64,000 nucleotides of DNA from Flavobacteriales bacterium (GTDB lineage Bacteria > Bacteroidota > Bacteroidia > Flavobacteriales > UBA7312), in contig JBMHBP010000012.1 of NCBI GenBank assembly GCA_049890295.1, positions 9,983 to 73,982 on the forward strand, in the 5' to 3' direction. Positions 3,103-18,602 of the stretch are shown in pieces. Below the pieces are notes generated by a model. That model was given only the letters and a program-made list of their open reading frames with translations, searched no databases and was not told the origin of the DNA. The translations under genes were made by a program, and so were the position numbers. How positions within the stretch are numbered: the first letter of the stretch is position 1; each line of letters begins with the position of its first letter.

Positions 3103-3110
3103 AGATTATT

Positions 3111-4358
3111 TTATGCTGATTGTACATCAATTATTGATATTTCTGGTAAAATACCAACCCTTCCAGGATATCCCAGATGACCAATCCCTCTATTGACATA
3201 CAAGTAATTATTGCCTTTTTGGTAAAGTCCAGCCCAATGTTTATATCGCCACTTAACTGGGCTCCACTTAAATTTACCTACTTCAACTCCAAATTGCATG
3301 CCATGTGTATGTCCAGCCATTTGCAGGTCTATGTGCTGATCAGACTTCAACACTTTACTTTCCCAATGGGTTGGGTCATGAGATAACAAAAATGTGGGAA
3401 TATTCTCTTTAGAATTTTCAAGAGCTTTGTTCAGGTCCCCGTATTTTGAGAATCTTCCTGAACCCCAATTTTCTACCCCAACAATGTTAATCTCAACATT
3501 TGATACTTTTAAAACTCTAGTTTCATTCAATAATAAATCAAAGCCCATTGATTTATGAATTGATAGCATTTCTTGAAAGCTCTCATTCCACTTACTCAAA
3601 CCTAACTCGGTTGACCTATTTAATCCAATATAGTCGGCATAGTCATGATTACCCAATACAGAGTATTTTCCATATTTTGCCTTTAATTTTTTCATTACTT
3701 CCACAAAGGGTCTGGCTTCTGAAGGAAAATTATTTACCAAATCGCCAGTGAAAACAATTAAATCTGGATTTTCATTATTTATCAAATTAACAGCCTCGGT
3801 TAGTTTACTTACACTCTGAAAGCTACCTAAATGTAGGTCAGAAATTTGTATTATTCTTAAAGGCTTTTCACCTTTAGGGTAGTTTTTAAGATTAAGTTTT
3901 ACAAAATGTTTTTTGAAATTATATCTACCAATAAGGATTCCGTAGGTTAAAAGTGAAAGTGTAACTGCTCCGAAACCAAAAGCGGTTTTTTTCAAGAAAT
4001 TTAATCTTGTAATCGGCTCAGCAACTGATGATTGGTCAGTTGACGAGAAGAGTAGTCTATATAACTGTTTGAAAAGACGAATTACATCGTCAATTATAAG
4101 CGGAAATGCAACAGTCATTTTAGATGCTACAATAGCAAAAATAAATCCAAAAATAACCACCATATATCCTGGATATAAGGTCATGTTAGAGTTGATTGCT
4201 GGATAAAAAATGGCCGCTATTGTTAAAATTGAAATCATCCAGTATAAGTATTTAACTACTGGATTTGAAACAAAATATGTTTTAAATGCCGACCAGATAT
4301 ACAGGTCAAGTGAAAGGATAAATGTTACGAATATAGTTGCGAAAATTATTCTAGCCAT
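3111..4358 (-). CDS. Membrane-anchored metallophosphoesterase (calcineurin-like)
   Basis: 415 aa. N-terminal hydrophobic helices followed by phosphoesterase motifs ISDLHLG, TGDLVN, GNHDY, GHTHG. Confidence 0.85.
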   Translation of the reverse strand: MARIIFATIFVTFILSLDLYIWSAFKTYFVSNPVVKYLYWMISILTIAAIFYPAINSNMTLYPGYMVVIFGFIFAIVASKMTVAFPLIIDDVIRLFKQLYRLLFSSTDQSSVAEPITRLNFLKKTAFGFGAVTLSLLTYGILIGRYNFKKHFVKLNLKNYPKGEKPLRIIQISDLHLGSFQSVSKLTEAVNLINNENPDLIVFTGDLVNNFPSEARPFVEVMKKLKAKYGKYSVLGNHDYADYIGLNRSTELGLSKWNESFQEMLSIHKSMGFDLLLNETRVLKVSNVEINIVGVENWGSGRFSKYGDLNKALENSKENIPTFLLSHDPTHWESKVLKSDQHIDLQMAGHTHGMQFGVEVGKFKWSPVKWRYKHWAGLYQKGNNYLYVNRGIGHLGYPGRVGILPEISIIDVQSA

Positions 4359-4387: not shown

Positions 4388-5023
4388 TTAAAGATTAAAT
4401 TCTGGAAGTTCATTTACTCTTGCATAAGGTAAATTATCAATACCTTTTAAACTATAATAACGATTCAGCCCACCTATCCCAACAGATTGAAGTTTTTGCA
4501 AATCAATTTCATAGTTTTCATTTAGGCATGTGTCATCAATAGTTATATGCTCAATAGAGCCTATAAACAAGGAACATTGATTAATGGTAATTGGAACTAC
4601 TTCCTCTAATTTTAAACCGATTTTCAAGTGGCTTTCTTTGACAAATGGCGCATCAAATCCATCAATATATTCTTCCGTTAGTTGACATTTTTCAAACTCT
4701 GAATCCTGTGAATCAAATTTGGCAGAAGTATAATGGGCTTTAGATACAAACTGAGGGTGTACATGATTGAAAGTATAATACTTTGTTTCTAATATATTTT
4801 CATAAGTATCGCGTCTTACTTCGGTATGCGGACGAAGAAAAAAACCTAACAAAGCAGGATGACTACCTAAATGTACTACTGAACTAAAAATAGCAAGATT
4901 AGTATTTCCTTCGCCTGATTTTGTGCCAATTAAATTAGCTGGCTTAATACCAGTTATTGAATTAATCAAATTTAAACGTTTAATTCGAGGGGTTTTAAAA
5001 ATATCTTCTTTGGTTAAGTGCAT
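4388..5023 (-). CDS. Flavin reductase family protein (FMN-binding split-barrel)
   Basis: 211 aa. LNLINSITGIKPANLIGTKSGEGNTNLAIFSSVVHLGSHPALLGFFLRP matches the conserved Bacteroidota flavin-reductase-like block as I remember it. Confidence 0.6.
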   Translation of the reverse strand: MHLTKEDIFKTPRIKRLNLINSITGIKPANLIGTKSGEGNTNLAIFSSVVHLGSHPALLGFFLRPHTEVRRDTYENILETKYYTFNHVHPQFVSKAHYTSAKFDSQDSEFEKCQLTEEYIDGFDAPFVKESHLKIGLKLEEVVPITINQCSLFIGSIEHITIDDTCLNENYEIDLQKLQSVGIGGLNRYYSLKGIDNLPYARVNELPEFNL

Positions 5024-5024
5024 T

Positions 5025-5504
5025 TTAAAGGATTATTCTACTTTTTACTAAATCTTGAAAAGATAGTATATTGGTTTCCGAAAAAGTTTTAAAGGTCGTG
5101 ACATCAAAAAAGAAAATGGCATGATCACCGTGGTGCTCCATAACAGATTTTTTTTCTAACTCAAGAACCGCTGAAATATCTTTAAGTATGGTATGATCTT
5201 TCCAATTTTCTAACAAGTCGTAAGACTGTAAATACCGTTCTTTATCATAAATACGGCCGCTGACTTTACCTAATTTACGAATCACTTTAAGATTATTGGA
5301 ACTGAGTAATTGGAGAACTACTTTATCAGATTTTTCGAGATTTTTAAAGGTTTTAGAAGTATAATCTATAGCAATCATATACATCTTAGGTTTCATACTA
5401 ATTGGAGATACATATGTACAAATATTCATGTTTAGACTATTGTTATCATCATAAGTAATCAAACTATAAACTGGTGGACTAATTGTATTCCAAGGTCGTT
5501 TCAT
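5025..5504 (-). CDS. Flavin reductase-like domain protein (weak call)
   Basis: 159 aa. Size and the pattern LITYDDNNSLNMNICTYVSPISMKPKMYMIAID resemble the flavin reductase-like fold. 4-nt overlap with the upstream gene and 1-nt gap to the downstream gene. Confidence 0.45.
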   Translation of the reverse strand: MKRPWNTISPPVYSLITYDDNNSLNMNICTYVSPISMKPKMYMIAIDYTSKTFKNLEKSDKVVLQLLSSNNLKVIRKLGKVSGRIYDKERYLQSYDLLENWKDHTILKDISAVLELEKKSVMEHHGDHAIFFFDVTTFKTFSETNILSFQDLVKSRIIL

Positions 5505-5962
5505 TTTTTAAATTTTTTATCTAAGACTTTAAATCTGTAATCGAAAATTTCTTTAAGTTGTTTTTTGATCAAAAATTGATTAGCAATGTCACCCAAAATA
5601 CCAAATGGTGGGATATAGGTAACAATATCAGTCATTAAAACACCCTTGTCATTTTCCTCAAAAAAATGTTGATGATGCCACATTTTATAAGGACCCATAC
5701 GTTGTTCATCAATAAAAAAATGTTTATCCCTAACTTGTGTTATTTCAGTCACCCAATTCATTTTAATATTCAAAAGCGGGGACACTTTATAAGAAATGAT
5801 CATGCCAGGATACATCTTTTCCCTCAACTCTTCAGAGGTAATTTCAAACAACATATAATCTGGTGTTATTTCTTTTAGATTTTTTGGAGAAGAAACAAAG
5901 TCCCAAATTGTATCGATGTCAGTGTTTAATTGCTGTTTTACAGTTAATTGATAGTGCGACAT
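5501..5962 (-). CDS. SRPBCC (START/polyketide-cyclase-like) family protein
   Basis: 153 aa. N-terminal pattern ...DIDTIWDFVSSPKNLKEITP... and the overall size are typical of SRPBCC ligand-binding proteins. First gene after operator copy 1. Confidence 0.6.
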   Translation of the reverse strand: MSHYQLTVKQQLNTDIDTIWDFVSSPKNLKEITPDYMLFEITSEELREKMYPGMIISYKVSPLLNIKMNWVTEITQVRDKHFFIDEQRMGPYKMWHHQHFFEENDKGVLMTDIVTYIPPFGILGDIANQFLIKKQLKEIFDYRFKVLDKKFKK

Positions 5963-5990
5963 TAGTGGTTAAATTAGTAATTATATAATT

Positions 5991-6022
5991 TTGTATAATT
6001 ATCTTTTTATACATCTATACAA
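5991..6022. promoter_or_regulatory. Palindromic operator candidate copy 1 (TTGTATA-N18-TATACAA)
   Basis: TTGTATA at 5991..5997 and TATACAA at 6016..6022 with an 18-nt spacer. Lies 29 nt upstream of the SRPBCC start (5962, minus strand). The right arm overlaps a minus-strand TATATTTG box (6027..6020). Same arms and spacing as copies at 7262 and 14149. Confidence 0.6.
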
Positions 6023-6157
6023 ATATACGACTATGAAGTGAATTAGTTTTAAATAGGGCCATAAAAGTCGAAAACTAAATACTTTTTATAATCTTAAATC
6101 GGACATTAATTTAGTATGACGAATAATAGTTTAACAAAATTTAATTCTGAGATTAAT

Positions 6158-7039
6158 TTAATTGATAATGTCTATAAATTCATCAAGGTTTTCCATAACA
6201 ATTAGACTTTTTTCCTGTGTTAGAAAATTTATATCTAGTCCATTAGCTACTAAATAATGTTTGGCTGATGGAAAAGTTTTGTTTATATAATCCGTTGTAA
6301 AATCTAGATTACTTTTTGAAGTATTTGAAATGGAGAAAAACAAAACATTATCTACTCTTCTTTTTTCTGCTAGCTGTTGAAGTGATCCGTAAGGAATGTT
6401 ATTACCCAAATAGATGACTTCATAACCATGTTTAACAAGTAAAAATTTAGCAAACATTAATCCTATATCATGAAATTCATTTTCGGGTAAGAAAAGTAAC
6501 CAGCTTTCTTTACTGTTGATATTTAAACTAGCAGAGTCAGCAGCGGCGGACACCTTTTGCTTAACAAGTTCAGATAAGAAATGCTCTTGTGAAGGAGCAA
6601 TTCTATTAGTGAGCCAAAAAATACCGACCTTATTGAAAGCTATTAATAAAACGCTTTTATAGAATTCAATAATTCCCAATTCACGAACACCACTATCATA
6701 AGTCAAATGAAACAATTTAGAATCAAACTCTAGAGCTGATTCAATGAGTTTAGAAATATAGTAAGCCTCTTTGGATTTATTATCAGAACTGTTTTTTATA
6801 CTATCTACTTTCTGTCGTATTTCATCATCAGAAAGTTTTGAGACCACAGATATTTTGAGTCCGTTTTCAAGTAAATAATTACAGTTAAGAGCACGCACTA
6901 ATAAGTCATCAGTATAATAACGGATTTTAGTGTCAGTACGCTCGGCTTTTAAAAACCCATAACGATTTTCCCATGTTCTTAGTACAAACTTGGTAATTCC
7001 CGTTATCTGGGAAAATTGATCTATACTATACTTTGTCAT
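6158..7039 (-). CDS. carH: MerR-family transcriptional regulator with B12-binding domain, CarH/LitR-type AdoB12 photoreceptor
   Basis: 293 aa. MerR HTH (YSIDQFSQITGITKFVLRTWENRYGF). Wx9EH (WLTNRIAPSQEH, nt 6581..6616). ExHxxG (EFHDIG, nt 6461..6478), then SIS about 42 aa later and NG about 28 aa after that, which is the cobalamin-binding Rossmann signature. Confidence 0.85.
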   Translation of the reverse strand: MTKYSIDQFSQITGITKFVLRTWENRYGFLKAERTDTKIRYYTDDLLVRALNCNYLLENGLKISVVSKLSDDEIRQKVDSIKNSSDNKSKEAYYISKLIESALEFDSKLFHLTYDSGVRELGIIEFYKSVLLIAFNKVGIFWLTNRIAPSQEHFLSELVKQKVSAAADSASLNINSKESWLLFLPENEFHDIGLMFAKFLLVKHGYEVIYLGNNIPYGSLQQLAEKRRVDNVLFFSISNTSKSNLDFTTDYINKTFPSAKHYLVANGLDINFLTQEKSLIVMENLDEFIDIIN

Positions 7040-7261
7040 TTACAATATATTTTCCATTTGGAAACTTGTCAAGCCAAAAATCAAGATTGCTTAGAGACTT
7101 AAGATTTATTCTAATCTTGTCAGTATAAAAGACAATCTTTGGTGTTCTTTTCTTGATTTCCTCTATAGAAATTTTTTGCTTTTTCTTTCTAGGCATTGTT
7201 TACAAAAATTTGTTATTAGCATACACCATAGTCAGCTAATCTTAGTGCAAATATACACTTT

Positions 7262-7293
7262 TTGTATAATTATTATGTTATTTTTTTATACAA
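7262..7293. promoter_or_regulatory. Palindromic operator candidate copy 2 (TTGTATA-N18-TATACAA) in the carH / cupredoxin-FAS1 divergent region
   Basis: TTGTATA at 7262..7268 and TATACAA at 7287..7293 with an 18-nt spacer. Flanked by a minus-strand TATATTTG (7255..7248, toward carH) and a plus-strand TATATTTG (7321..7328, 22 nt before ATG 7350). Confidence 0.6.
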
Positions 7294-7349
7294 AACTTCA
7301 AATTTTTAACAAATACCTTGTATATTTGCATAAATTATTAATCAAAATT

Positions 7350-9098
7350 ATGAAAAAAGTTTATTTATTATTTTCATTGTTTTTCTTGACAATGACATTT
7401 TCTTTTGCTAGCAGCCATCAAATAAATGCTGGCGGATTTTACTACCAACCATCTTCGCTCACAGTCTCTATTGGTGATACTGTAGTTTGGGTAAACGATG
7501 GTGGAACTCATGATGTTAATGGTAATATCAATTCTCAAACGGGATCTAGCTTTAACAATCCTGAAAGTTTTAGTTCAGCCTCAACATCAGCACAAGGAGC
7601 AATCATTTATACTTACGTATTTACCATACCTGGCACATACAACTATGATTGCTCAGTTGGTAATCATGCAGCAATGGGCATGGTTGGAACAATTATAGTT
7701 GAGGATGAAACTACAGTTTTTGATTTAATTGCTAGCTCTGAAAACCACACAACATTAGAAACAGCATTATTAACTGCTGGTCTTGACGCTGCCCTAAACG
7801 GCGATGGACCATTCACTGTGTTTGCTCCTAGTGATGATGCCTTTGGCGAAATACCACAAGATGATTTAGATAATCTGTTAGCCAATGCTGCACAGCTAAA
7901 CGCTGTTTTATTACACCACGTTCATGCTGGCGAAATCTTAGCTCAAGATATTGTTACAATGAATGGTATGACAATTGAAACACTAAACCAAGATCAATTA
8001 TCTGTCACCATTGACGGCTCAACAGTAATGATTGATATGTCTACTGTTACTACACCTGACCTTATCGCCGATAACGGGGTAGTACATGTTGTTGATATGG
8101 TATTAATGCCAGAAACACTGACAACTGTATTCGATATCATAGCTGGTTCAGAAAACCACATGACTTTAGAAACGGCTATACTTGAAGCCGAGTTAGATGA
8201 TGCTTTAAACGGTATTGGACCTTTGACCGTATTTGCTCCCAGTGATGATGTGTTCAACAATCTTCCGGAAGGTACACTAACTACTTTATTAGCTAATACA
8301 AATCTTTTAACCACCATACTATTACATCATGTACATGCCGGAGAACTTCTTTCAGCTGACTTAGTTGGCATGGATGGTATGACTATTGAAACACTGAACG
8401 ATGATGAATTAACAATTACAATCGCTAATGATATTGTCAAAATTGACATGGCTACAGTAACAATTCCAGATCTTACGGCAATTAATGGTGTTGTTCATGT
8501 GATTGACATGGTACTGATGCCTGAAATTGATACCACCATAACTGTGATGGATATTGTGGATAATTCACCATCACATACAACACTAAAAACAGCTTTATAC
8601 GAAGCTGAATTAGATGATGACCTAAGAACAGAAGGTCCATTCACTGTGTTTGCACCAACTGACAGTGCATTCAATAGTTTACCTGCAGGTGCTTTAGACG
8701 ATTTATTAGATAATATCCCAGCACTTATAGAGGTATTACACCATCACGTTCATTCTGGAAACGCTATGGCTGATGACTTATCTAATGATATGATGATTCC
8801 TACCCTAAACAACGATAATTTAACTGTAACAATTGAGGGTAGTACAGTCATGATAGATATGGCAACTGTTGTATTAGCTGATTTAACAGCAGATAACGGC
8901 GTAGTACATGTTATTGATATGGTTCTTTTACCGGAATCAAATCCAACAGCAATAGATGAATTTATTTCAACCGACAAATTTTACTTATATACAATGAACA
9001 TTCTTGGCGAAAAAGTTAATAGAAATGCTAAAGACAAAATTCTTATTGACATATTTTCTGATGGTAGTTCAATCAAACGTTATAACTTGACTAAGTAA
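7350..9098 (+). CDS. Secreted cupredoxin (type-1 copper-like) domain + three fasciclin (FAS1) domains + short C-terminal T9SS-like tail
   Basis: The track ORF starts at TTG 7176. I place the start at ATG 7350 (MKKVYLLFSLFFLTMTFSFA signal peptide). Cupredoxin region has candidate Cu ligands H (GGTHDV), C (YDCSV), H (GNHAAM), M (GMVG). There are three ~137-aa FAS1 repeats (TVFAPSDDAF...NGVVHVIDMVL). The tail NILGEKV...ILIDIFSDGSSIKRY resembles a truncated Por sorting domain. Confidence 0.8.
   Translation: MKKVYLLFSLFFLTMTFSFASSHQINAGGFYYQPSSLTVSIGDTVVWVNDGGTHDVNGNINSQTGSSFNNPESFSSASTSAQGAIIYTYVFTIPGTYNYDCSVGNHAAMGMVGTIIVEDETTVFDLIASSENHTTLETALLTAGLDAALNGDGPFTVFAPSDDAFGEIPQDDLDNLLANAAQLNAVLLHHVHAGEILAQDIVTMNGMTIETLNQDQLSVTIDGSTVMIDMSTVTTPDLIADNGVVHVVDMVLMPETLTTVFDIIAGSENHMTLETAILEAELDDALNGIGPLTVFAPSDDVFNNLPEGTLTTLLANTNLLTTILLHHVHAGELLSADLVGMDGMTIETLNDDELTITIANDIVKIDMATVTIPDLTAINGVVHVIDMVLMPEIDTTITVMDIVDNSPSHTTLKTALYEAELDDDLRTEGPFTVFAPTDSAFNSLPAGALDDLLDNIPALIEVLHHHVHSGNAMADDLSNDMMIPTLNNDNLTVTIEGSTVMIDMATVVLADLTADNGVVHVIDMVLLPESNPTAIDEFISTDKFYLYTMNILGEKVNRNAKDKILIDIFSDGSSIKRYNLTK
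7713..8936 (+). repeat. Three tandem ~411-bp coding repeats (FAS1 domain units)
   Basis: Units at about 7713..8111, 8124..8522 and 8538..8936 share long blocks at both nucleotide and protein level (ENHTTLETA / ENHMTLETA / PSHTTLKTA; FTVFAPSDDAF; LLHHVHAG; DNGVVHVVDMVLMPE). Confidence 0.8.
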
Positions 9099-9123
9099 AA
9101 CCCTCAATCAATTATACAATCAT

Positions 9124-9150
9124 GGGGGAGTAATTACTCCCCCTTTTTTA
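9124..9150 (+). terminator. Rho-independent terminator after the cupredoxin-FAS1 gene
   Basis: GGGGGAGT-AATT-ACTCCCCC gives an 8-bp GC-rich stem (9124..9143) followed by TTTTTT (9144..9149). It ends 11 nt before the gpx ATG. Confidence 0.75.
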
Positions 9151-9159
9151 TATCCTATT

Positions 9160-9684
9160 ATGACTAAATACCTCCTTTTAATTATATCACTTTTAACTAT
9201 GAATACTACAATTTCTCAAACTTTTTACGACCTGTCTATCAAAGGTATTGACGGAGAAACTATCAATCTTTCTGATTACAAAGAACAAAATGTACTGATT
9301 GTAAATGTTGCCTCATTTTGTGGTTATACTTCCCAATACACTGAACTTCAAAAATTACACGACTCTTTCCCCAACTTAACCGTAATAGGCGTTCCATGTA
9401 ATCAATTTGGTTTTCAAGAGCCTGGCAATGCAAAGGAGATACAGAACTTTTGTCAAAGTAAGTATAGTATAGATTTTGTGCTCACTGAAAAAACAAAAGT
9501 TAAGGGAAAAGACAAGCATGAACTTTATAAATGGTTGACAGAAAAGAGTCTAAATGGTAAAGATGACTTTTCAGTGAGTTGGAATTTCAATAAATTCCTA
9601 GTCAATTCAGATGGCCAATTAGTAGATCATTTTGGTAGTGGAGTGTCTCCAATGGACAGTAAAATCACCAGTCAAATTAGGTAA
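9160..9684 (+). CDS. Glutathione peroxidase (Cys-type, BtuE-like), secreted/periplasmic
   Basis: 174 aa. Signal peptide, VASFCGYTSQY (peroxidatic Cys block), GVPCNQFGFQEPG, WNFNKFLV. These are canonical GPx family motifs. Confidence 0.9.
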   Translation: MTKYLLLIISLLTMNTTISQTFYDLSIKGIDGETINLSDYKEQNVLIVNVASFCGYTSQYTELQKLHDSFPNLTVIGVPCNQFGFQEPGNAKEIQNFCQSKYSIDFVLTEKTKVKGKDKHELYKWLTEKSLNGKDDFSVSWNFNKFLVNSDGQLVDHFGSGVSPMDSKITSQIR

Positions 9685-10241
9685 TGAAGAAGTTTCTGAT
9701 TGTATGTTTATCTATAATTTCGGTATTTACTATTTACGCTTTTAATGTGAGTTATGATACAAACTATACCGTAATTGAGACTATTGAATCTGTAGAAATT
9801 CGAGAATATCCAGAATCAATTTTTGCTAGCTATTATACAAATGGTTCAGGAAATAACTCTCAATTTAGAGTGCTTGCCAACTACATTTTTGGCGGAAACG
9901 ACCGTCAAGAACAAATTGGTATGACCTCTCCGGTGAATATGAAAATATCATCTGAGAATAATGAAATGTTATTCTTGATGCCTAATCGATACAATAAAAT
10001 CAATTTACCAAAACCTAATAACATCAATATCGACATAATTACCGTAGAAAAACGTAAAGTAGCTACTCTTCGGTTTTCAGGTTACTCCAATACTGATAAA
10101 GTTAATAAGAAAAAAGCTCAACTTATCGAGACTCTAAATAAACACAATATTAAACATACCAATGAGTATGAACTATTAATTTACGACTCACCATATAAGT
10201 TGCTGAACCGAAGAAATGAAGTATTAGTCGTACTACCATAA
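9684..10241 (+). CDS. SOUL heme-binding family protein
   Basis: 185 aa. YTVIETIESVEIREYPE, FRVLANYIFGGN, IGMTSPV, ATLRFSGY are SOUL/HBP family blocks. The start overlaps the gpx stop by 1 nt. Confidence 0.75.
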   Translation: MKKFLIVCLSIISVFTIYAFNVSYDTNYTVIETIESVEIREYPESIFASYYTNGSGNNSQFRVLANYIFGGNDRQEQIGMTSPVNMKISSENNEMLFLMPNRYNKINLPKPNNINIDIITVEKRKVATLRFSGYSNTDKVNKKKAQLIETLNKHNIKHTNEYELLIYDSPYKLLNRRNEVLVVLP

Positions 10242-11035
10242 TGCCAGAAGGTCCTGAGGTAAAAATAGCATCCAAATTTTATAATTCTTTTTTTAAAGAA
10301 GCAAAAAATATGTCCTTTGATATTATCAACGAATATTATGAGGTCAAATACAAAACTGTTTTTGAAAAAATCAAAAACCATCATCCTAAAGATTTTGTAC
10401 CATCGTTTACAGTGGGTAAAAATTTATTTATTCCCTTAAACAACAATTATTTATTCAACTTCCATCTTGGCATGACAGGTTGCTGGAGTCATGAAAAATC
10501 AAAACACTGCCACTTCAAAATTTCTAGTAGTAATGGTGAACTCTTTTTTAAAGACGTTAGAAAATTTGGTAAAATGAGAATACTCACTTTTGATGAATTT
10601 GCCATAAAACATTCTCCTCAGTTTGATTTACTACATGAAGATTACAATACAGAATTACATCTAACATACCTTACAGAAAAAATTACCCCCAAACGGAGTA
10701 TATGCTCTGTATTGATGGATCAAAACTGTTTTCCTGGAGTTGGTAACTACATAAAATCTGAGGCCCTATTTGCTGCAAAAATTCATCCCGAAAAAAAATG
10801 GGGACAATTATCTAAGAGAAAAAAAATAACTTTAATAGAGTTTACAAAAGAAATCATGCATCATAGTTTTCAAACTGGAGGTGCTGAACTTAAAGATTTT
10901 AAAAACCCTTTTGACCAGTCTCAATTTTCATTAAAAGTGTATGGTAAAAAAAATGACCCTGAAGGGAATGAAGTGATCAGTCAATTAACCTCTGACCAGC
11001 GTAAAAGTTGGTTCTGTCCATCCGTTCAAAAATGA
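10241..11035 (+). CDS. Fpg/Nei family DNA glycosylase/AP lyase with degenerate (zincless-type) C-terminal finger
   Basis: 264 aa. N-terminal MPEGPEV (catalytic Pro2/Glu3), H2TH-like PGVGNYIKSEALFAAKIHP. The C-terminus ...VYGKKNDPEGNEVISQLTSDQRKSWFCPSVQK retains only one Cys where Fpg has CxxC...CxxC. Confidence 0.85.
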   Translation: MPEGPEVKIASKFYNSFFKEAKNMSFDIINEYYEVKYKTVFEKIKNHHPKDFVPSFTVGKNLFIPLNNNYLFNFHLGMTGCWSHEKSKHCHFKISSSNGELFFKDVRKFGKMRILTFDEFAIKHSPQFDLLHEDYNTELHLTYLTEKITPKRSICSVLMDQNCFPGVGNYIKSEALFAAKIHPEKKWGQLSKRKKITLIEFTKEIMHHSFQTGGAELKDFKNPFDQSQFSLKVYGKKNDPEGNEVISQLTSDQRKSWFCPSVQK

Positions 11036-11391
11036 ATTACTGTGTCCATTTTATTTTTTACAATCAGGAGCTACTACTATTGAAGCGAAAAAAAACAAAT
11101 CCATTTTTTCCTAACATATGGACACCTGTCATTGGGAAAATAAAAAATAATGAACAACCTTATGATGCAATGATTAGAGAAACAAAGGAAGAAACTGATT
11201 TGATTTTAGCAAATCCCCAATTTATTAAAGAAGTCAAACACAAGGATGATACGTATTGGTTTTATCAAAGCACGACCGAAACAACTGATATCTACTTGAA
11301 TCATGAAAATGATAAATTCAGTTTCTTTAAATGTAATGAGCTACCAGAAAGTTTATGGTTACTTTTCAAAAATATAGTTGCAAAATCCTAA
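11032..11391 (+). CDS. NUDIX hydrolase
   Basis: Nudix box GKIKNNEQPYDAMIRETKEETDL (Gx5Ex7REUxEExGU with G to D at the last Gly). I prefer ATG 11032 (ATGA overlap with the nei stop) over the track start at 11008. Confidence 0.8.
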   Translation: MNYCVHFIFYNQELLLLKRKKTNPFFPNIWTPVIGKIKNNEQPYDAMIRETKEETDLILANPQFIKEVKHKDDTYWFYQSTTETTDIYLNHENDKFSFFKCNELPESLWLLFKNIVAKS

Positions 11392-13454
11392 GTCAGTCGC
11401 TTAATAATCAAAGGCAAATAGACTAGATCAAAAAACACAGCAATAATTGCACTTAAGATAGTGATTACTGAAAGTTGAGATACAGACTTGAACTCAGAAA
11501 ACATCAGTGGTAGTAAACAAAAAATAATAATAAAGGTAGTTTTTACAACAGCCGAGCCCGTTTTAGTTAGCACTAAATCCATTGCTTTTGATTGGCTAAC
11601 CCCTCGCTTGATATGATTTGAATAGGCGCTAATCACATGTATTGAGTCATCAATAATCAGTCCAAAAACTATAGTAAAAATAAAAGCGTTAGATAAACTA
11701 AAGTAAAATCCAAATGTGTGAAGAATTCCAATACAAACAAGTATTGGTGCTAGATTTGGAATAACAGCAATCACAAAGTAATTTTTATTAAAATTATTGA
11801 TTACGAAGAAAATGATGCCTATTGATAAAATGGCAATCAATAAACCAAAAATTAGCTGTTTGGTTAAATCATTGGCTAATAAATCAAATAAATACCCCGC
11901 TCCAGAATATTCAAACTTAACCTCAGGGAATACACTTTCTAAGTTGTTTAACTTACTAATTGTTTTTAGTGAACCTTCATCAGAAGATCGACAAATAAAA
12001 AAATAACTATCGGCTAGAGATTCACTTGAAAACCCCATGCTTTTAAGCAAGCTAGTATTTGATGATATATTAGAAAAATCTATTGTAAAACCCAAGTTTA
12101 TCAATTCATCTTCAATAGCTTTTAATTGCTCATAGTCTAATTCTTTTTGTTGACTAATATTGATTGATATTGGCTTTATTCCTCCAAAATGTTGATCAAT
12201 GAAGGCCGTTTGTTTGTACATGAACGACTTTTTATTTATTTCATCAGTTAAGTAGTTGTCAATTTTTACATTAAACACACCATAAACTCCTAAAGCAACT
12301 AAAAAAACCATGACAACATGAAAAGTCATTTTCTGCTGGCCCTCTTTTAAAAACATAATAAAACTAGATATAAACTGTTCTATAAACAAATAACTATTAC
12401 TTTGATTAAAGCCTTTCTCAACACTGATGGAATAAACTAATTTGGCAATAAATAAAGTAACGACTACCCCTAAAGAAGTAATTATACCGAACCGTAAAAT
12501 TGGCATAATATCGTTAGCTAAAAAGGTTAGAAAACTCATAGCAGTAGTAATTGACGTCAAGGCTACAGCCTTCCCCACCAGGTTCATTCTATTGTCAAAA
12601 AAGCCTCTTCGAGATTGCGTCAGTTTAGCTTGTTTATTGGTCAAATGCATAATATCAGAAAGACAAACAATAAAAAGAATAGCAGGAGTAACAATCATTA
12701 CCAACTCAATACCACCAAATACAATTTGTGAAATTCCTAGCGTAATTACTATACTAGCTATTACGCTCATAACAGTTAAACTTACTAAAGCTAAATTTCG
12801 AGTAATAAGCATCAGAAATAAAAAGCAAAGCGTACCGCTAATAAGAGTCAAAACAATAAACTCTTCTATAACTTTTTTTGAAAAATATAATTCACTTGGC
12901 AGTCGTCCACTAACAAATACTTCCTCTAAATTAGCGTTAATATTAGCCTTATAAAGCGATGCTATAAAGGATTTATTTTCTTCAAAAGTAGTTTCCGCTT
13001 CTTTCTCTACTAAAAAAAGTAATTTTTTTCTGTCATCAGAAATGAAATTACTAGGTGATTGTTGTAACGTTAGAAAAGAGCGGTCAAATGATTGTTGACT
13101 TTGTAAATCCAACACCCTATTGGTGATTGGAAAAAGACCTGTATTTATAATTCGCCTGTCATTAATTATACTAAATAGACGTTTTACTTGGCTTGTTTTT
13201 TTTAAAGTCGTATGAAAATTTTTGACATCATTCATATCTGTATAAGACAGACTTTCTTTGAACGATAAGCCTAAAAAAACAAGATTATTATCATCGACTA
13301 ATTTTACAGCTTCGTTGCTAAGCTCTAACTCATTGATTATTCGTTCAGAATCAAAAAATATTGTTGCAGTCGAAAGACGAAAAGCACAATATATGAAAGT
13401 CAAAACGGTTAAAACCGATAAGCTATATTTATAACGCCACAAAAACGAATACAT
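11388..13454 (-). CDS. MMPL/RND-superfamily (sterol-sensing-domain type) membrane transporter
   Basis: 688 aa. Two hydrophobic 5-6 helix bundles separated by soluble loops, the topology typical of MMPL/SSD exporters. Follows the SDR gene after a 5-nt gap. Confidence 0.65.
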   Translation of the reverse strand: MYSFLWRYKYSLSVLTVLTFIYCAFRLSTATIFFDSERIINELELSNEAVKLVDDNNLVFLGLSFKESLSYTDMNDVKNFHTTLKKTSQVKRLFSIINDRRIINTGLFPITNRVLDLQSQQSFDRSFLTLQQSPSNFISDDRKKLLFLVEKEAETTFEENKSFIASLYKANINANLEEVFVSGRLPSELYFSKKVIEEFIVLTLISGTLCFLFLMLITRNLALVSLTVMSVIASIVITLGISQIVFGGIELVMIVTPAILFIVCLSDIMHLTNKQAKLTQSRRGFFDNRMNLVGKAVALTSITTAMSFLTFLANDIMPILRFGIITSLGVVVTLFIAKLVYSISVEKGFNQSNSYLFIEQFISSFIMFLKEGQQKMTFHVVMVFLVALGVYGVFNVKIDNYLTDEINKKSFMYKQTAFIDQHFGGIKPISINISQQKELDYEQLKAIEDELINLGFTIDFSNISSNTSLLKSMGFSSESLADSYFFICRSSDEGSLKTISKLNNLESVFPEVKFEYSGAGYLFDLLANDLTKQLIFGLLIAILSIGIIFFVINNFNKNYFVIAVIPNLAPILVCIGILHTFGFYFSLSNAFIFTIVFGLIIDDSIHVISAYSNHIKRGVSQSKAMDLVLTKTGSAVVKTTFIIIFCLLPLMFSEFKSVSQLSVITILSAIIAVFFDLVYLPLIIKRLT

Positions 13455-13459
13455 ACTTT

Positions 13460-14125
13460 CTATTTTTTGATAGAAGATAATCCACCATCAAGCTGTAAAA
13501 CTTGACCGGTCATCCATGATGATTTGTCTGAAAGCAAAAATTCAATACCATGTGCAATATCCTGAGGTTGTCCAACTCTTTGTAATGGATGACGAGCATT
13601 CATTTGTTCTACCTGGGCTTCAGTTCTAAATAAACGACTTGATAATTTAGTTTGCACCACAGAAGGAGCTATACAATTCACCCTTACCTTAGGAGACCAC
13701 TCGGCAGCTAATGCACGTGCAAACCCCTCCAATGCTGACTTACACAATGAAATAGATGCATGATATGGCATACCGACAGATGCAGCAACAGAGCTAATAA
13801 ATACAACTGATGAATTTTGAGCCAATTGCTTGTGATAGTGTTTAAGAATTTTAATTAATCCTAATACATTTATTTCGTAATCAGTCTGAAAATCAGACAA
13901 TTTTAAACCAGAAAATGGTCTTAGGTTAATTGAACCAGGAAAATATACTAAACCATCTAAATCACCTGAAATATCTGGAAATGTGGATTCATCCTGAATG
14001 TTCACTTGGTGTTGTCCAGGACTTGAAGGATTGGAAGTAAACTGAATAAATTCTGTTTTAGTTCCGCTAATTTCTAAAAGGCTTTTAGCTATTTCACTAG
14101 AAGCACCAACGAGTAATATTTTCAT
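13460..14125 (-). CDS. Short-chain dehydrogenase/reductase (SDR), atypical catalytic-Tyr spacing
   Basis: 221 aa. MKILLVGASSEIAKSL Rossmann start, ISSVAA, CIAPSVVQT, and C-terminal WMTGQVLQLDGG typical of classical SDRs. The expected YxxxK region reads PYHASISLCKSAL. Confidence 0.8.
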   Translation of the reverse strand: MKILLVGASSEIAKSLLEISGTKTEFIQFTSNPSSPGQHQVNIQDESTFPDISGDLDGLVYFPGSINLRPFSGLKLSDFQTDYEINVLGLIKILKHYHKQLAQNSSVVFISSVAASVGMPYHASISLCKSALEGFARALAAEWSPKVRVNCIAPSVVQTKLSSRLFRTEAQVEQMNARHPLQRVGQPQDIAHGIEFLLSDKSSWMTGQVLQLDGGLSSIKK

Positions 14126-14148
14126 TTTTCTTGCAAAGCTAATACTTT

Positions 14149-14180
14149 TTGTATAATTTTGACAATGTAAATTTATACAA
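14149..14180. promoter_or_regulatory. Palindromic operator candidate copy 3 (TTGTATA-N18-TATACAA) in the SDR / PTPS-folE-crt divergent region
   Basis: TTGTATA at 14149..14155 and TATACAA at 14174..14180 with an 18-nt spacer, inside the 56-nt gap between ATG 14125 (minus) and ATG 14182 (plus). The left arm overlaps a plus-strand TAATTTTG box (14154..14161). A minus-strand TAGCTTTG box lies at 14141..14134. Confidence 0.6.
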
Positions 14181-14181
14181 A

Positions 14182-14598
14182 ATGAAAAAAGTTAAAGTAA
14201 TTCGTCGTGAACGTTTCAACGCTGCCCACCGATTATTCAACCCTAACTGGTCGGATAAAAAAAACGAAAGTGTTTTTGGCAAATGTTCAAACAAAAATTG
14301 GCACGGTCACAACTACGAGTTATTTGTCACTGTTGAAGGCACTATCGACCCAGAGACTGGCTACGTTATTGATCTCAAAATTTTGAGTGACATCATCAAA
14401 AATAATGTTGTAAACAAAATGGACCACCGAAACCTTAATCTAGAAGTTGACTTCATGAAAGGTGTGATTACTACAGCTGAAAATATAGCCGTTAAAATAT
14501 ACGAACAGATTGAAAAAGAAATCAAGGCTACTAACTGCAATCTCTACAGTGTGAAACTCTACGAGACTGAAAATAATTATGTGGAGTATTATGGATAA
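14182..14598 (+). CDS. 6-pyruvoyl-tetrahydropterin synthase / QueD family (COG0720) enzyme
   Basis: I place the start at ATG 14182 (MKKVKVIRRERFNAAHRL...); the track start at 14149 is a TTG inside the operator. Motifs FNAAHRL and C-x5-HGH (CSNKNWHGHNY), and the C-terminal ETENN block. Confidence 0.85.
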   Translation: MKKVKVIRRERFNAAHRLFNPNWSDKKNESVFGKCSNKNWHGHNYELFVTVEGTIDPETGYVIDLKILSDIIKNNVVNKMDHRNLNLEVDFMKGVITTAENIAVKIYEQIEKEIKATNCNLYSVKLYETENNYVEYYG

Positions 14599-15277
14599 AA
14601 AACAAAACGAAAATATCGCTCACATCATAGAACTAAATCCTGAATTAAAAAATATTGGTTTTGCCGATGGTATAAATATTGGAGGTGCACTCAATAGTGC
14701 GGAGAAGGAAGTAATGATTAAAAAGGCAGCTCATAAATTTGGAGAGTTTTTAGATGCATTAGGTTGCGACTGGAAAAACGACCCTAATTCTAAAGAAACA
14801 CCAACAAGAGTTGCCAAAGCGTATGTCAACGATTTGTGGGCCGGACGATATAATCCATTTCCTAAAATAACCACTTTCCCCAATGACGATTATGATGGCA
14901 TCATTTTTGAGGGAAATATTCCTGTAATATCTATGTGTTCTCACCACCATCAAACCATTATGGGCAAAGCACATATAGCCTATATTCCAAAAATCAACCA
15001 TAAGATAATAGGATTGAGTAAGCTCAACCGAATTGTCGAACATTACTCCAGGCGTGGTGCTATTCAAGAAAACTTGACAGTACGCATTCACGATGCCATC
15101 AATAAGATAGTTGAGAGTAACAAGGGAGTTGCTGTAATGATTGAAGCAACTCACAATTGTGTTCAATGTAGAGGTGTAGGCCATAAAGGAACAACAATGA
15201 AGACTTCTAAATTAACTGGAGAGTTCATAGAATCGAACAAAACAAGAAATGAATTTTATGAATTTATCAAGTCTTAA
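14579..15277 (+). CDS. folE: GTP cyclohydrolase I (FolE type 1)
   Basis: 232 aa. TPTRVAKAY, zinc ligands in SMCSHHHQ and ATHNCVQCRGV. Alternative start at ATG 14591. Overlaps the upstream gene end. Confidence 0.9.
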   Translation: MWSIMDKKQNENIAHIIELNPELKNIGFADGINIGGALNSAEKEVMIKKAAHKFGEFLDALGCDWKNDPNSKETPTRVAKAYVNDLWAGRYNPFPKITTFPNDDYDGIIFEGNIPVISMCSHHHQTIMGKAHIAYIPKINHKIIGLSKLNRIVEHYSRRGAIQENLTVRIHDAINKIVESNKGVAVMIEATHNCVQCRGVGHKGTTMKTSKLTGEFIESNKTRNEFYEFIKS

Positions 15278-15279
15278 AT

Positions 15280-16758
15280 ATGGGTAAGGTTTCAGTCATA
15301 GGAAGTGGATTTTCAGGCTTAAGTACGGCGGCATTCTTGGCAAAAGATGGGCATGAGGTTTCAATTTTTGAAAAAAACAATACCATAGGAGGTAGAGCTA
15401 GACAATTTAGTGCCAATGGATTTATTTTTGATATGGGTCCAAGTTGGTATTGGATGGCTGATGTTTTTGAAAAATTCTTTCATCAATTTGGAAAAAAACC
15501 CAGTGACTATTTTGATTTAGTACAATTAGATCCAGGCTTTCAGATCATTTTCGACCAAGATCATACAATGGAAATTTCGTCGAATTGGGATGACGTTTGC
15601 GAGTTATTTGAATACTTTGAAAAAGGCTCTGCAGATAAGCTAAATGCATTTATGAAAGAAGCCGAATACAAATACGACATCGGCATCAATCAATTAGTGT
15701 ACGAGCCAGGGCTGTCATTATCAGAAGTCTGCAAACCTGAAATTTTCCTCAACGTATTTAAACTTCAAGTTTTCACTTCTTACAGAAAGCATGTAGCTAA
15801 ATATTTTAAAAATCCTTATTTAAGATCACTTTTAGAGTTTCCTGTTTTATTTCTAGGAACAGCACCCAATCAAACCCCCGCTTTGTATAGTTTAATGACT
15901 TACTCCGGCATCAAAAAAGGAACCTTTTATCCAATGGGTGGTTTTGGGAAAGTTATTGATGGCTTTAAACAAGTATGTGTCGAACAAGGGGTTTCTATTT
16001 TCACAGACGAGGCCGTGCAGTCAGTGAACATAAAGGACAGAAAAATTCAGTCAATACAAACAAGCCAAAGAACGTTTGAAACTGATGTTCTGATAGGATC
16101 GGCCGATTACAGCCATGTAGATAATAAAATTCTACCCAAAGAATACAGTAATTACAAGGCATCCTATTGGGAGAATAGAACTTTCTCGCCATCTAGTTTG
16201 TTATTTTATGTAGGAGTCAATAAAAAAATAAATAAACTCATTCATCACAATTTATTTTTTGATGAAGATATTGAACAGCATACTAATGAGATATATAAAA
16301 ACCCACAGTGGCCAAAACAACCTCTTTTTTATGTTTGCTGCCCTTCAAAGACAGATCCAGAAGTAGCTCCAGAAGGAAAAGAAAACTTATTCTTTTTAAT
16401 GCCAATAGCTCCCGGCCTTCAAGATACCGAAGAGATTCGCGAAAAATATTTCAAAATAATGCTAAAGCGTCTAGAAAAATATACGGGACAAAGCATAGAG
16501 GACGCTATTGAGTACAAAAAGAGCTACTGCGTTAATGACTTCGTTTCTGATTATAATGCTTATAAAGGCAACGCCTATGGCTTAGCTAACACGCTTATGC
16601 AAACTGCTAATTTGAAGCCTAAAATCAATAATAAAAAAATATCAAACTTATTCTACACAGGACAACTTACTGTACCAGGACCCGGTGTCCCACCTTCAAT
16701 TATTTCAGGACAGGTGGTTGCCAAACATATTGTAGATTCTAAACTTCTTTCATTATGA
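15280..16758 (+). CDS. crtI: Phytoene desaturase
   Basis: 492 aa. FAD dinucleotide fold VIGSGFSGLSTAAFLAKDGHEVSIFEKNNTIGGRA and C-terminal FYTGQLTVPGPGVPPSIISG, typical of CrtI. Confidence 0.9.
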   Translation: MGKVSVIGSGFSGLSTAAFLAKDGHEVSIFEKNNTIGGRARQFSANGFIFDMGPSWYWMADVFEKFFHQFGKKPSDYFDLVQLDPGFQIIFDQDHTMEISSNWDDVCELFEYFEKGSADKLNAFMKEAEYKYDIGINQLVYEPGLSLSEVCKPEIFLNVFKLQVFTSYRKHVAKYFKNPYLRSLLEFPVLFLGTAPNQTPALYSLMTYSGIKKGTFYPMGGFGKVIDGFKQVCVEQGVSIFTDEAVQSVNIKDRKIQSIQTSQRTFETDVLIGSADYSHVDNKILPKEYSNYKASYWENRTFSPSSLLFYVGVNKKINKLIHHNLFFDEDIEQHTNEIYKNPQWPKQPLFYVCCPSKTDPEVAPEGKENLFFLMPIAPGLQDTEEIREKYFKIMLKRLEKYTGQSIEDAIEYKKSYCVNDFVSDYNAYKGNAYGLANTLMQTANLKPKINNKKISNLFYTGQLTVPGPGVPPSIISGQVVAKHIVDSKLLSL

Positions 16759-17594
16759 AACATATTTTCGATAACGTATCCGATAGATGCAGTAAACTAA
16801 CAACTATAGCCTACAGTACCAGTTTTAGTTTTGGTATTAAAGCATTAGATAAAAAACTACATGCACCAATATATGGTATTTATGGCTTTGTTCGATTTGC
16901 TGATGAAATAGTAGATACCTTTCATGAATACGACAAGCATCACCTATTTAATAAATTCAAAGAAGATACCATTGAGTCAATAGATAGAAAAATAAGCTTA
17001 AACCCTATCCTCAATAGTTTCCAAAAGGTAGTCCATGACTATAATATTGAATGGAATCTTATTAATACCTTTTTAGATAGCATGCAAATGGATCTTGATG
17101 AAGAACAGGCATACGATTCCGACAAGTATAACAAATATATATTAGGGTCTGCTGAAGTAGTCGGTTTAATGTGCCTAAAAGTGTTTGTAGACGGTGATGA
17201 AGATGCATATACAAAACTTAAGCCAAGCGCGATGAGTTTAGGCTCAGCATTCCAAAAAGTTAATTTTTTGAGAGATGCTAATAGCGACTTTAACAACTTA
17301 GGAAGAACCTACTTTCCAGATGTTAATATGCTAAACTTTAGCGAATCAGACAAAGCAAAAATTGAAGCCGATATACAATTTGACTTTCAAGAAGCTTTGG
17401 AAGGAATTAAACAATTACCATACAGTTCAAGAGGTGGTGTTTATCTAGCTTATATTTATTATTACAATTTATTTAGAAAAATTAAGTCCTTACCATCCTC
17501 TAAAATATTAGAAGAAAGAATTCGAATTCCAAATGCTGATAAGCTTGCGCTGATGGCCCAATCAATGATAAAAAATCAATTGAATTTGATATGA
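16755..17594 (+). CDS. crtB: Phytoene synthase
   Basis: 279 aa. YSTSFSFGIKAL, YGFVRFADEIVD (first Asp-rich motif region), SAEVVGLMC, FQKVNFLRD. 4-nt overlap with crtI. Confidence 0.9.
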   Translation: MKHIFDNVSDRCSKLTTIAYSTSFSFGIKALDKKLHAPIYGIYGFVRFADEIVDTFHEYDKHHLFNKFKEDTIESIDRKISLNPILNSFQKVVHDYNIEWNLINTFLDSMQMDLDEEQAYDSDKYNKYILGSAEVVGLMCLKVFVDGDEDAYTKLKPSAMSLGSAFQKVNFLRDANSDFNNLGRTYFPDVNMLNFSESDKAKIEADIQFDFQEALEGIKQLPYSSRGGVYLAYIYYYNLFRKIKSLPSSKILEERIRIPNADKLALMAQSMIKNQLNLI

Positions 17595-18052
17595 AAGTAT
17601 GTATTTCAATACTTCTCCTCTTTTTATCTAAGCTTGCCTTAACACAATCATCCAAAACAACTGAGCTTCGTGAACTCTTTGTCACCGCTCATACTGAAGA
17701 GGAAACGTGTATTAAGCTATTTAAATTAACTGAAAATACCGATTTGAAAGAAAATTCATTAGCATACGCATATCATGCAGTCGCTAATATGTTATTAGCA
17801 AATTACGCTTTAAATCCATTCAAAAAATGGCACTATTTTAAAGTTGGTAAAGAAATGCTTGAAAACGTAATTATTCAAAACCCAAAAAATATTGAAATTC
17901 GTTTTTTGAGGTACTGCATTCAAATGAATTCACCAGTATTTTTGGCCTATCAAAGTGATCTAGAAACAGATAAAAAAATTATATCCTCAAGCATTTATAA
18001 TCAGCCTAAACACTTACAATCATTTATTAACCCCATATTTAACAATCTATAA
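17591..18052 (+). CDS. Hypothetical signal-peptide protein embedded in the carotenoid operon
   Basis: 153 aa. Hydrophobic N-terminus (MKVCISILLLFLSKLALTQS). The composition looks helix-prone, though no structure prediction was run. ATGA overlap with the crtB stop (17591..17594) and 1-nt gap to idi. No family recognised. Confidence 0.6.
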   Translation: MKVCISILLLFLSKLALTQSSKTTELRELFVTAHTEEETCIKLFKLTENTDLKENSLAYAYHAVANMLLANYALNPFKKWHYFKVGKEMLENVIIQNPKNIEIRFLRYCIQMNSPVFLAYQSDLETDKKIISSSIYNQPKHLQSFINPIFNNL

Positions 18053-18053
18053 T

Positions 18054-18593
18054 ATGAATTCGCAAGTTATTTTAGTTGACAAGAAAGATAATCCTATTGG
18101 TATTATGGACAAGCTAGAAGCTCATGAAAAAGGGCTTCTACACAGAGCTTTATCTGTTTTTATTTTCAATTCTGAAGGCAAGATGCTTATACAGCGACGA
18201 GCTTTAACGAAATATCACACACCCGGCTTGTGGAGCAATACTGCATGTAGTCACCCAATGATTGGAGAAGAAACGATAGATGCAGCCCGAAGACGTTTAA
18301 AAGAAGAGATGGGTTTGACAACAAATTTGACTTTTTCATTTAGTTTTTTATATGAAGCAAGTTTTATAAATGGCCTCACTGAAAATGAATTAGATCATGT
18401 TTATTTAGGCTTCTCAGATGATAAACCTGAATTTGATAGAAGAGAAGTTTGTGACTATAAATACATGAGTACCGAAGAGCTTGAAAAAGACGTTAATGAC
18501 TTTCCAGAAAAATATACCCCATGGTTTAAAATATGCCTCAAGAAAGTATTAGAAAGCAAATACTATTTTCAAAAAAATGCATTAATTGCTTAA
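18054..18593 (+). CDS. idi: Isopentenyl-diphosphate delta-isomerase, type 1 (Nudix fold)
   Basis: 179 aa. LHRALSVFIFNSEGKMLIQRRA, WSNTACSHP (catalytic Cys), ENELDHVY. Confidence 0.9.
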   Translation: MNSQVILVDKKDNPIGIMDKLEAHEKGLLHRALSVFIFNSEGKMLIQRRALTKYHTPGLWSNTACSHPMIGEETIDAARRRLKEEMGLTTNLTFSFSFLYEASFINGLTENELDHVYLGFSDDKPEFDRREVCDYKYMSTEELEKDVNDFPEKYTPWFKICLKKVLESKYYFQKNALIA

Positions 18594-18602
18594 TTTTGTA
18601 CT

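Follow-up and report, generated by a model that had tools for sequence, protein, structure and literature searches.

Three exact copies of the palindrome TTGTATA-N18-TATACAA lie within a light and stress locus on a 64-kb stretch of DNA from an uncultured marine Flavobacteriales bacterium known from a metagenome-assembled genome (the window, meaning the whole stretch that was analyzed). The same locus encodes a homolog of CarH, the paradigm of B12 photoreceptors and an optogenetic tool. We put at roughly three in four the probability that this CarH (6158 to 7039, minus strand) binds the three palindromes, here called O1 to O3, and represses transcription through them. An initial annotation of the window had proposed the motif as a CarH operator that defines a light regulon, and the sequence analysis supports this proposal. 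CarH is favored as the binder because 30 of the 31 testable loci have a copy of the motif ahead of the carH transcription unit, because the half-site TATACA matches the recognition units published for CarH/LitR (TnnACA, PMC9304148; TGTA(C/T)A, PMC9758184), and because no other transcription factor domain was found in the scanned open reading frames (ORFs) of 90 aa or more.

A strictly spaced palindrome conserved at promoters

The window contains exactly three copies of the palindrome, all of them intergenic and none assigned a strand. O1 (5991 to 6022; 5990 to 6023 in its extended form) precedes a minus-strand operon that begins with an SRPBCC gene. O2 (7262 to 7293) lies in the divergent promoter region between an operon formed by a small ORF and carH (minus) and a cupredoxin-FAS1 operon (plus), and O3 (14149 to 14180) is located in the 56-nt gap (14126 to 14181) between an SDR gene (minus) and a PTPS gene (plus). 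The coordinates, sequences, and common extension TTTTGTATAATT...TATACAAA given in the initial annotation were all re-found, as were its quoted -7 boxes and the length of the SDR-PTPS gap. Only 0.01 copies are expected in the window, and none of 100 dinucleotide-preserving shuffles reached three. Allowing one or two mismatches added no further copy in the window, and at three mismatches 13 more palindromes appeared versus 13.8 expected, i.e., chance level. The mismatch distribution in the window is bimodal, consisting of either perfect sites or noise.

For comparison, 27 loci (L001 to L027) from distinct marine Flavobacteriales species were collected by a CarH-profile scan of a genome collection (CarH 80 to 40% identical), and four more carH loci came from contig look-ups. 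In the window together with L001 to L027 (552,712 nt, 33% GC), the arm pair occurs in 39 exact copies at a spacer of 18 nt and not once at spacers of 5 to 17 or 19 to 25 nt. Everted or direct arm orientations are almost never seen in the same DNA, and the arms as a direct repeat are absent at all spacings, apart from a copy offset by 8 bp that forms a -7 box. Seven cases at a spacer of 26 nt have the same kind of origin, namely, a -7 box, TTG-TATATTTG, which passes for an arm 8 nt farther upstream. A symmetrized logo of 55 sites reads tTTGTATAA-n-TTT-N8-AAA-n-TTATACAAa, with 1.2 to 2.6 bits per position in the arms and about 0 at the spacer center; T26, A29, C30, and A31 are each at least 95% conserved. 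The arms are invariant across relatives and the spacer sequence is variable. In addition, the intergenic region between the small ORF and the cupredoxin gene was aligned for 12 species with MAFFT, blind to the motif (alignment A4); apart from two -7 boxes, both arms, and the start codons, it contains no invariant block. The initial annotation had staked its proposal on the motif being denser than in ordinary AT-rich DNA and conserved upstream of orthologs. The first is borne out by the spacer counts, and the second by the motif-blind alignment and by the recurrence of the site beside the same gene families after rearrangement.

These observations bear on two explanations that would not involve a regulatory protein of this kind. 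The first is a compositional artifact built from AT-rich promoter words (TTTG of the -33 element and TAnnTTTG of the -7 element) or a repeat resembling a miniature inverted-repeat transposable element (MITE). The arms do contain TTTG, a -7 box with TTG in front of it (TTGTATATTTG) looks similar to an arm, and the genome has 33% GC. However, neither strand of the right arm TATACAAA reads as a -7 box, and the sites hold orthologous positions with divergent spacers across species rather than variable insertion sites. The low expectation per window, the strict spacing of 18, and the motif-blind alignment effectively rule out both a promoter-word coincidence and a MITE. The second, an RNA hairpin in 5′ leaders that acts on translation or stability, or a terminator, is very improbable. 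Such a hairpin would reach to within 1 nt of the PTPS ATG, and the predicted 10-bp stems have z-scores of -1.7 to -2.9, but the predicted energies are only -5 to -8 kcal/mol and there is neither a T-run nor an Rfam match. Moreover, the site between the small ORF and the cupredoxin gene lies upstream of both -7 boxes and would therefore not be transcribed, and the 42 distinct variant sites have 68 variant arm positions, of which 56 break the pair and not one is changed on both sides. The hairpin was rejected for its lack of compensatory changes, its weak energies, and the missing Rfam match. What is conserved appears to be the sequence and not the pairing, a signature that points to a protein-binding DNA site.

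The position of the operator was then expressed relative to the promoters. Bacteroidota promoters consist of -33 and -7 elements, the latter with the consensus TAnnTTTG, and the promoter positions given here were set by matches to this consensus, with no mapped transcription start site. Boxes of the sequence TATATTTG are located at 6027..6020 (minus), 7255..7248 (minus), and 7321..7328 (plus). Except on the cupredoxin side, all sites overlap or abut such a match. At the SRPBCC promoter, the -7 box (6027..6020) shares its TTG with an arm of O1 and the operator reaches downstream, spanning about -10 to +25; the same overlap is found at the orthologous sites of L001 to L008 and L019. The O1 spacer contains an extra near-arm, TATACAT, at 6009 to 6015. 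At the promoter of the small ORF and carH, the proximal arm ends 4 to 6 nt upstream of the -7 box (6 nt for O2, box at 7255..7248), which places the operator at about -50 to -19. O3 lies differently with respect to its two flanking promoters: the SDR -7 box TAGCTTTG (14141..14134) sits 7 nt outside its left arm, and the PTPS -7 box TAATTTTG (14154 to 14161, plus) overlaps that arm, with the PTPS ATG 1 nt after TATACAAA and the operator at about -17 to +15. This layout recurs in L002, L004, L005, L007, L008, and L019. At the cupredoxin-FAS1 promoter (-7 box at 7321 to 7328), the distance from the end of the arm to the -7 box downstream of it is 13 nt in L005 to L008 and L019 and 27 nt in the window, L002 to L004, and L009 to L011. 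Consequently, the earlier placement of O2 at about -33 of both divergent promoters stands on the carH side and fails on the cupredoxin side, where O2 lies beyond -33 in the window.

Overall, the operator position is fixed within each promoter class and differs between classes. This constancy within and variability between classes fits steric repression by occlusion and does not fit activation in the style of MerR, which needs a fixed place inside the promoter spacer. It nonetheless has to be weighed whether bound CarH might, at some promoters, activate in the MerR style or have a dual role, most likely at O2 for cupredoxin-FAS1. CarH belongs to the MerR superfamily, and O2 in the window does not reach into the cupredoxin core promoter (it lies at -42 and farther upstream), a place more typical of activators. 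On the other hand, a classical MerR protein needs a palindrome of about 20 bp fixed in a long -35/-10 spacer, compared to sites of 32 to 34 bp lying anywhere from -50 to +25 here. In L005 to L008 and L019, the site covers the -33 region at a distance of 13 nt from the -7 box, and all characterized CarH/LitR proteins are repressors (PMC9304148; PMC9758184). We therefore consider activation quite unlikely and retain repression as the preferred mode of action.

CarH as the predicted binder and repressor

The window CarH starts with a MerR-type winged helix-turn-helix (wHTH) domain (Pfam PF13411 MerR_1, E = 6.1e-14, residues 4 to 70) that aligns with the DNA-binding domain of CarH from Thermus thermophilus (TtCarH). 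A phmmer comparison with TtCarH structure 5c8d extends over residues 4 to 233 (E = 2.4e-13; 5c8d and 3whp both score about 2e-13), and through this alignment the C-terminal four-helix bundle and Rossmann module, which make up the B12-binding part, are homologous to those of TtCarH. The adenosylcobalamin (AdoB12) signatures Wx9EH (W142, E152, and H153) and ExHxxG (E188, H190, and G193) are both present. These six residues are invariant in 16 orthologs and in nine more distant ones, and they align with the W, EH, and H positions of TtCarH. The recognition-helix stretch LRTWENRY, in turn, is invariant in all orthologs and close to VLRQWERRYGF of TtCarH. The window CarH is predicted to bind AdoB12, to oligomerize in the dark, and to disassemble in the light, thereby losing its hold on DNA. 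This family has very many members in marine metagenomes, with more than 5,600 clusters (90% identity) at E ≤ 1e-20 among the 8,000 candidates scored. With a profile of distant CarHs aimed at cultured Flavobacteriia, the best 120 matches were all uncultured marine sequences.

The unit of the CarH direct repeat has been defined as nnnnTnnACAn (PMC9304148). Each arm of the palindrome together with its inner flank, (A)A-n-T-TATACA-A, fits this 11-bp unit, and the operator can be described as two inverted units in an arrangement of 11 + 10 + 11 bp, 32 bp in all. The sites found upstream of the carH transcription unit have at most two mismatches and belong to CarHs that are 40 to 100% identical to that of the window, and they include rearranged loci in which carH lies inside an SDR-SRPBCC-carH operon. 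The families that repeatedly adjoin the motif are the small ORF (also where it lies apart from carH), cupredoxin(-FAS1), SRPBCC, SDR, and PTPS or crtI. The linkage with cupredoxin is conserved in the relatives, that with SDR is found in at least 15 loci, including the unbiased metagenome matches L085, L086, L131, and L142, and the motif stands upstream of PTPS, or of crtI directly, in L012, L014 to L016, and L052. An unbiased scan of metagenomes with the pattern TTTGTATA-N18-TATACAAA returned at least 120 loci. Among the matches listed, most are chance or in-ORF occurrences from gut, soil, or other contigs, and about 25 adjoin regulon-type genes (small ORF, SDR, SRPBCC, PTPS, crtI, cupredoxin, or YceI). 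New candidate targets among these listed matches are YceI (all 7 of its 7 loci have an exact site), a 164-aa cupredoxin, a pterin-4a-carbinolamine dehydratase, DUF2452, and PAS-UbiA.

The scan also picked up an unrelated, recurring palindrome, TTTGTATACAAAATTGTATTATTGTTTATACAAA, which matched the search pattern by coincidence in the gut contigs L043, L046, L057, L058, L068, L091, L104, and L111. It lies next to a 539- to 540-aa gene, which is adjacent in six of the eight contigs, and it has the appearance of another conserved regulatory site, one belonging to gut contigs that resemble Bacteroidota.

A further alternative is that the palindrome is bound by another, unlinked regulator, for instance, a photo-oxidative or singlet-oxygen stress factor, with carH as one regulon member. 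The targets indeed include the general antioxidant and repair genes for glutathione peroxidase (GPx), SOUL, Fpg, and YceI, and they all reside in one island, which means that linkage to carH is not fully independent evidence. However, the half-site equals the CarH/LitR family unit, and the motif keeps its place upstream of the carH unit despite rearrangements. Pfam, applied to the window ORFs of 90 aa or more other than a 2,381-aa ORF (47692 to 54837, minus), revealed no transcription factor domain besides that of CarH, with several ORFs returning no family. No other such domain was found among the called genes of L148 to L151 either. An unlinked regulator is thus unlikely, and CarH remains the favored binder.

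According to the mechanism that we propose, an AdoB12-CarH oligomer would, in the dark, place two winged-helix domains on the inverted TnnACA units TTTGTATAA and TTATACAAA. The two 11-bp units are 25 bp apart from center to center, and the central 10 bp would remain unread and nonspecific. The site of 32 to 34 bp would then cover the -7 box, the -33 region, or the transcription start and exclude RNA polymerase. Upon illumination, AdoB12 would be photolysed and the oligomer would disassemble, derepressing five transcription units with about 20 genes: small-ORF-carH, cupredoxin-FAS1-GPx-SOUL-Fpg, SRPBCC-flavin reductases, SDR-MMPL, and PTPS-folE-crtIB-idi-crtZ. Through O2, CarH would also regulate its own expression.

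Several points weigh against this reading. All characterized class I CarH operators are tandem direct repeats, and an inverted layout would demand a different placement of the DNA-binding domains. The Pfam matches to the B12 domains are below threshold (PF02607, 22.1 bits for a cut-off of 23; PF02310, 22.1 bits for a cut-off of 32.1). The loci used for comparison were retrieved by carH homology, and the only unbiased search, the metagenome pattern scan, is noisy, with no clean false-positive rate obtainable; some of the linkage to carH could come from the light and stress genes all being grouped in a single island. Finally, O2 in the window stops 27 nt short of the cupredoxin-FAS1 -7 box, a weak placement for simple occlusion, which makes control of that promoter less certain and the weakest link of the model. 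Tentatively, the palindrome may represent a previously undescribed mode of CarH-DNA recognition, in which two-fold-symmetric DNA-binding domains, possibly of one head-to-tail dimer, contact inverted units 25 bp apart, and may also be the cis-element of a B12/light regulon that includes rhodopsin-blh in some clades; the combination of the two is somewhat doubtful.

Predicted targets, neighboring genes, and a rhodopsin clade

The initial annotation overlooked a conserved 56-aa ORF (7026 to 7196, minus) between O2 and carH. This small ORF is the first gene of the predicted carH operon and shares 14 nt with the start of carH, so that O2 heads a small-ORF-carH operon. Its product is basic and lysine-rich (MPRKKKQKISIEEIKKRTPKIVFYTDK...FPNGKYIVNDKV), and in all clades its homologs, 52 to 68 aa long, come after a copy of the operator, also at the loci where the small ORF is unlinked from carH (L015 to L018, L021, L022, L082, L110, L126, L131, and L134). 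It has no Pfam match, and its AlphaFold2 model is of moderate confidence (pLDDT 71), with a best Foldseek match to the PDB that is not significant (E = 0.35). An exhaustive profile search retrieved about 15 small-protein clusters in a 1.8-billion-protein representative library (50% identity), along with additional weak repeat-protein matches to the C-terminal W..K.PNGKY stretch. The small ORF may be a new partner of the light switch. A conserved block, ACACCATAGTC / GACACTATAGTC, was also noticed at 7221 to 7233 (plus), in the 5′ leader of the minus-strand small ORF; it is conserved in the window, L002 to L006, L008, and L019 and absent from L009 to L011 (alignment A4).

The gene annotations of the locus were upheld by Pfam, and the extents given here for the five target operons are predictions. 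Downstream of O1 on the minus strand, the operon at 4388 to 5962 comprises the SRPBCC gene (5501 to 5962) and two flavin-reductase-like genes (5025 to 5504 and 4388 to 5023), and these ORFs overlap or nearly abut. After gaps of 29 and 8 nt, the flavin reductases are followed on the minus strand (721 to 4358) by a calcineurin-like phosphoesterase gene (Metallophos, 3111 to 4358) and then a TonB-dependent receptor gene (CarboxypepD_reg and Plug, 721 to 3102). The SRPBCC operon may extend into these two genes, which may therefore share its light-controlled transcript. On the plus side of O2, the operon at 7350 to 11035 encodes a cupredoxin with three FAS1 domains (7350 to 9098), glutathione peroxidase (9160 to 9684), SOUL (9684 to 10241), and an Fpg/Nei glycosylase (10241 to 11035). 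The minus-side operon of O3 (11388 to 14125) carries the SDR gene (13460 to 14125) and a gene for an MMPL-family membrane protein (11388 to 13454), and the plus-side operon (14182 to 19040) carries PTPS, folE, crtI, crtB, a 153-aa ORF, idi (NUDIX), and crtZ.

In some relatives, a 133- to 136-aa gene with no Pfam match lies between carH and SRPBCC (L001 to L004, L007, and the metagenome match L115; e.g., 10875 to 11285 in L002); it is divergent from SRPBCC and has the operator in common with it. This gene is absent from the window, where 6023 to 6157 is only 135 nt of noncoding DNA. Farther away, in the surroundings of the 2,381-aa ORF, the region from 37 to 46 kb of the window is a polysaccharide-synthesis cluster with two sulfotransferases.

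Beyond the window, two contigs, L150 (from Tara Oceans) and L151 (295 kb), harbor a CarH homolog inside a "light island" that groups genes for a cryptochrome/photolyase, YceI, cupredoxins, PTPS, folE, Pterin_4a, PAS-UbiA, SDR, and CarH. Both contain exact sites upstream of YceI/cupredoxin and of PAS-UbiA, as well as a site with two mismatches upstream of an SDR-carH operon. In both, an exact site also precedes the start of a Bac_rhodopsin gene by 32 nt, with blh (BCD) next after that gene (L150, 13488 to 14273; L151, 14216 to 14247), and a site with two mismatches occupies the same place before the rhodopsin gene of L020 (16284). These findings, from three genomes of one clade, suggest CarH control of proteorhodopsin in that clade and are best taken as a lead. 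No link between CarH/LitR and proteorhodopsin was found in the literature searched. In L150, another exact operator copy lies downstream of carH, and after it come only a 7-codon ORF and some 270 nt of noncoding DNA (9118 to 9430); this stretch ends with a terminator-like hairpin at about 9384 to 9428 (GGTCAAG...CTTGACC and a T-run) that has no Rfam match. The region may correspond to a light-induced small RNA or a micro-ORF.

If the proposed model is true, a light/B12 regulon could be read directly from uncultured genomes, encompassing carotenoids, pterin, cupredoxin/FAS1, YceI, flavin enzymes, and DNA repair, with rhodopsin-blh in one clade, and its host would be a very abundant group of uncultured marine Flavobacteriales. 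B12 scarcity would lock the regulon genes on. Should the more doubtful inclusion of rhodopsin-blh also hold, the switch would provide a concrete mechanism for light induction of proteorhodopsin in Flavobacteriia, tied to B12 availability. An inverted-repeat operator with strict spacing would imply a different geometry of the DNA-bound oligomer and add to the plasticity of the CarH family. Transcriptional light sensing in marine Flavobacteriia would also become addressable with a defined 34-bp site.

Comparison with known CarH, LitR, and MerR operators

The operators of class I CarH/LitR proteins from Thermus, Bacillus, and Myxococcales contain three to five tandem direct repeats of 11 bp, and on the Thermus operator, which has three of them, the two outer ones, DR1 and DR3, are bound by a single head-to-tail dimer (PMC9304148). 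The window CarH resembles the class I proteins of T. thermophilus, Bacillus megaterium, and Myxococcales (CarH/CarA at Pcrt) in its MerR wHTH, its Wx9EH four-helix bundle, and its Rossmann module with the His ligand. Likewise, the palindrome shares with class I operators the TnnACA core within an 11-bp unit and a length of about 32 to 33 bp (3 × 11 in Thermus), and the overlap with core promoters, the autoregulated regulator, and the crt targets predicted from the window would match class I systems. In contrast to class I operators, there are two inverted units separated by 10 nonspecific bp, with no central repeat and no direct-repeat arrangement. Direct repeats hidden in the spacer were also sought in the 55-site logo, which has no C or ACA signal at an 11-bp phase from the arms. 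The earlier remark that this architecture departs from tandem 11-bp direct repeats is therefore confirmed. The promoters further differ in being of the Bacteroidota -33/-7 type, and the predicted regulon is much broader (pterin, cupredoxin-FAS1, YceI, SRPBCC, SDR, and, in some clades, rhodopsin).

An inverted reading of a CarH-type site has been put forward once before. The Myxococcus xanthus CarA operator pI/pII, which overlaps the -35 element and is bound by a paralogue of CarH, was first read as two inverted repeats and later reinterpreted as direct repeats, its palindromes being neither conserved nor required (PMC9304148). In the flavobacterial sites, by contrast, the inverted repeat itself is the conserved feature.

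Wide bipartite sites are known from the class II LitR proteins of Pseudomonas (PplR1/PmlR2). These regulators are repressors that bind sites of the form T(G/A)TACA-N12-TGTA(C/T)A, located over the -35 element or between the transcription start and the ATG, with a light regulon that includes folE/folM, photolyase, and stress genes (PMC9758184). The flavobacterial site is similar in being bipartite and widely spaced, and the Pseudomonas hexamers include TATACA and TGTATA. The spacer is nevertheless 12 there versus strictly 18 here, and the Pseudomonas hexamers are themselves palindromic, which leaves their orientation ambiguous. The Pseudomonas regulators are also without a Rossmann B12 domain and sense light via a LOV partner, whereas the window CarH keeps all AdoB12 ligand residues. 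The palindrome is thus compatible with class II operators in its hexamers and distinct from them in spacer and regulator. Since wide bipartite sites and a pterin link are already known in this system, it offers a precedent for a folE-containing light regulon.

The classical MerR operators, i.e., those of MerR, CueR, and SoxR, also present a dyad-symmetric site to a MerR-type wHTH. They measure about 18 to 22 bp, are fixed in a 19- to 20-bp -35/-10 spacer, and activate by DNA distortion, unlike the sites described here, whose 32 to 34 bp take variable positions from about -50 to -19 at one promoter to about -10 to +25 at another and set them apart from MerR activator sites. CarH also lacks the coiled-coil dimerization helix of MerR. 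In the literature searched, no operator was found for any flavobacterial or Bacteroidota CarH, and reports of light-induced carotenogenesis in Chryseobacterium and of a flavobacterium that produces zeaxanthin go no further than to mention an adjacent MerR/B12 gene. Taken together, these comparisons support a predicted CarH-family operator in Bacteroidota with inverted, strictly spaced units, a layout unlike that of every CarH site described.

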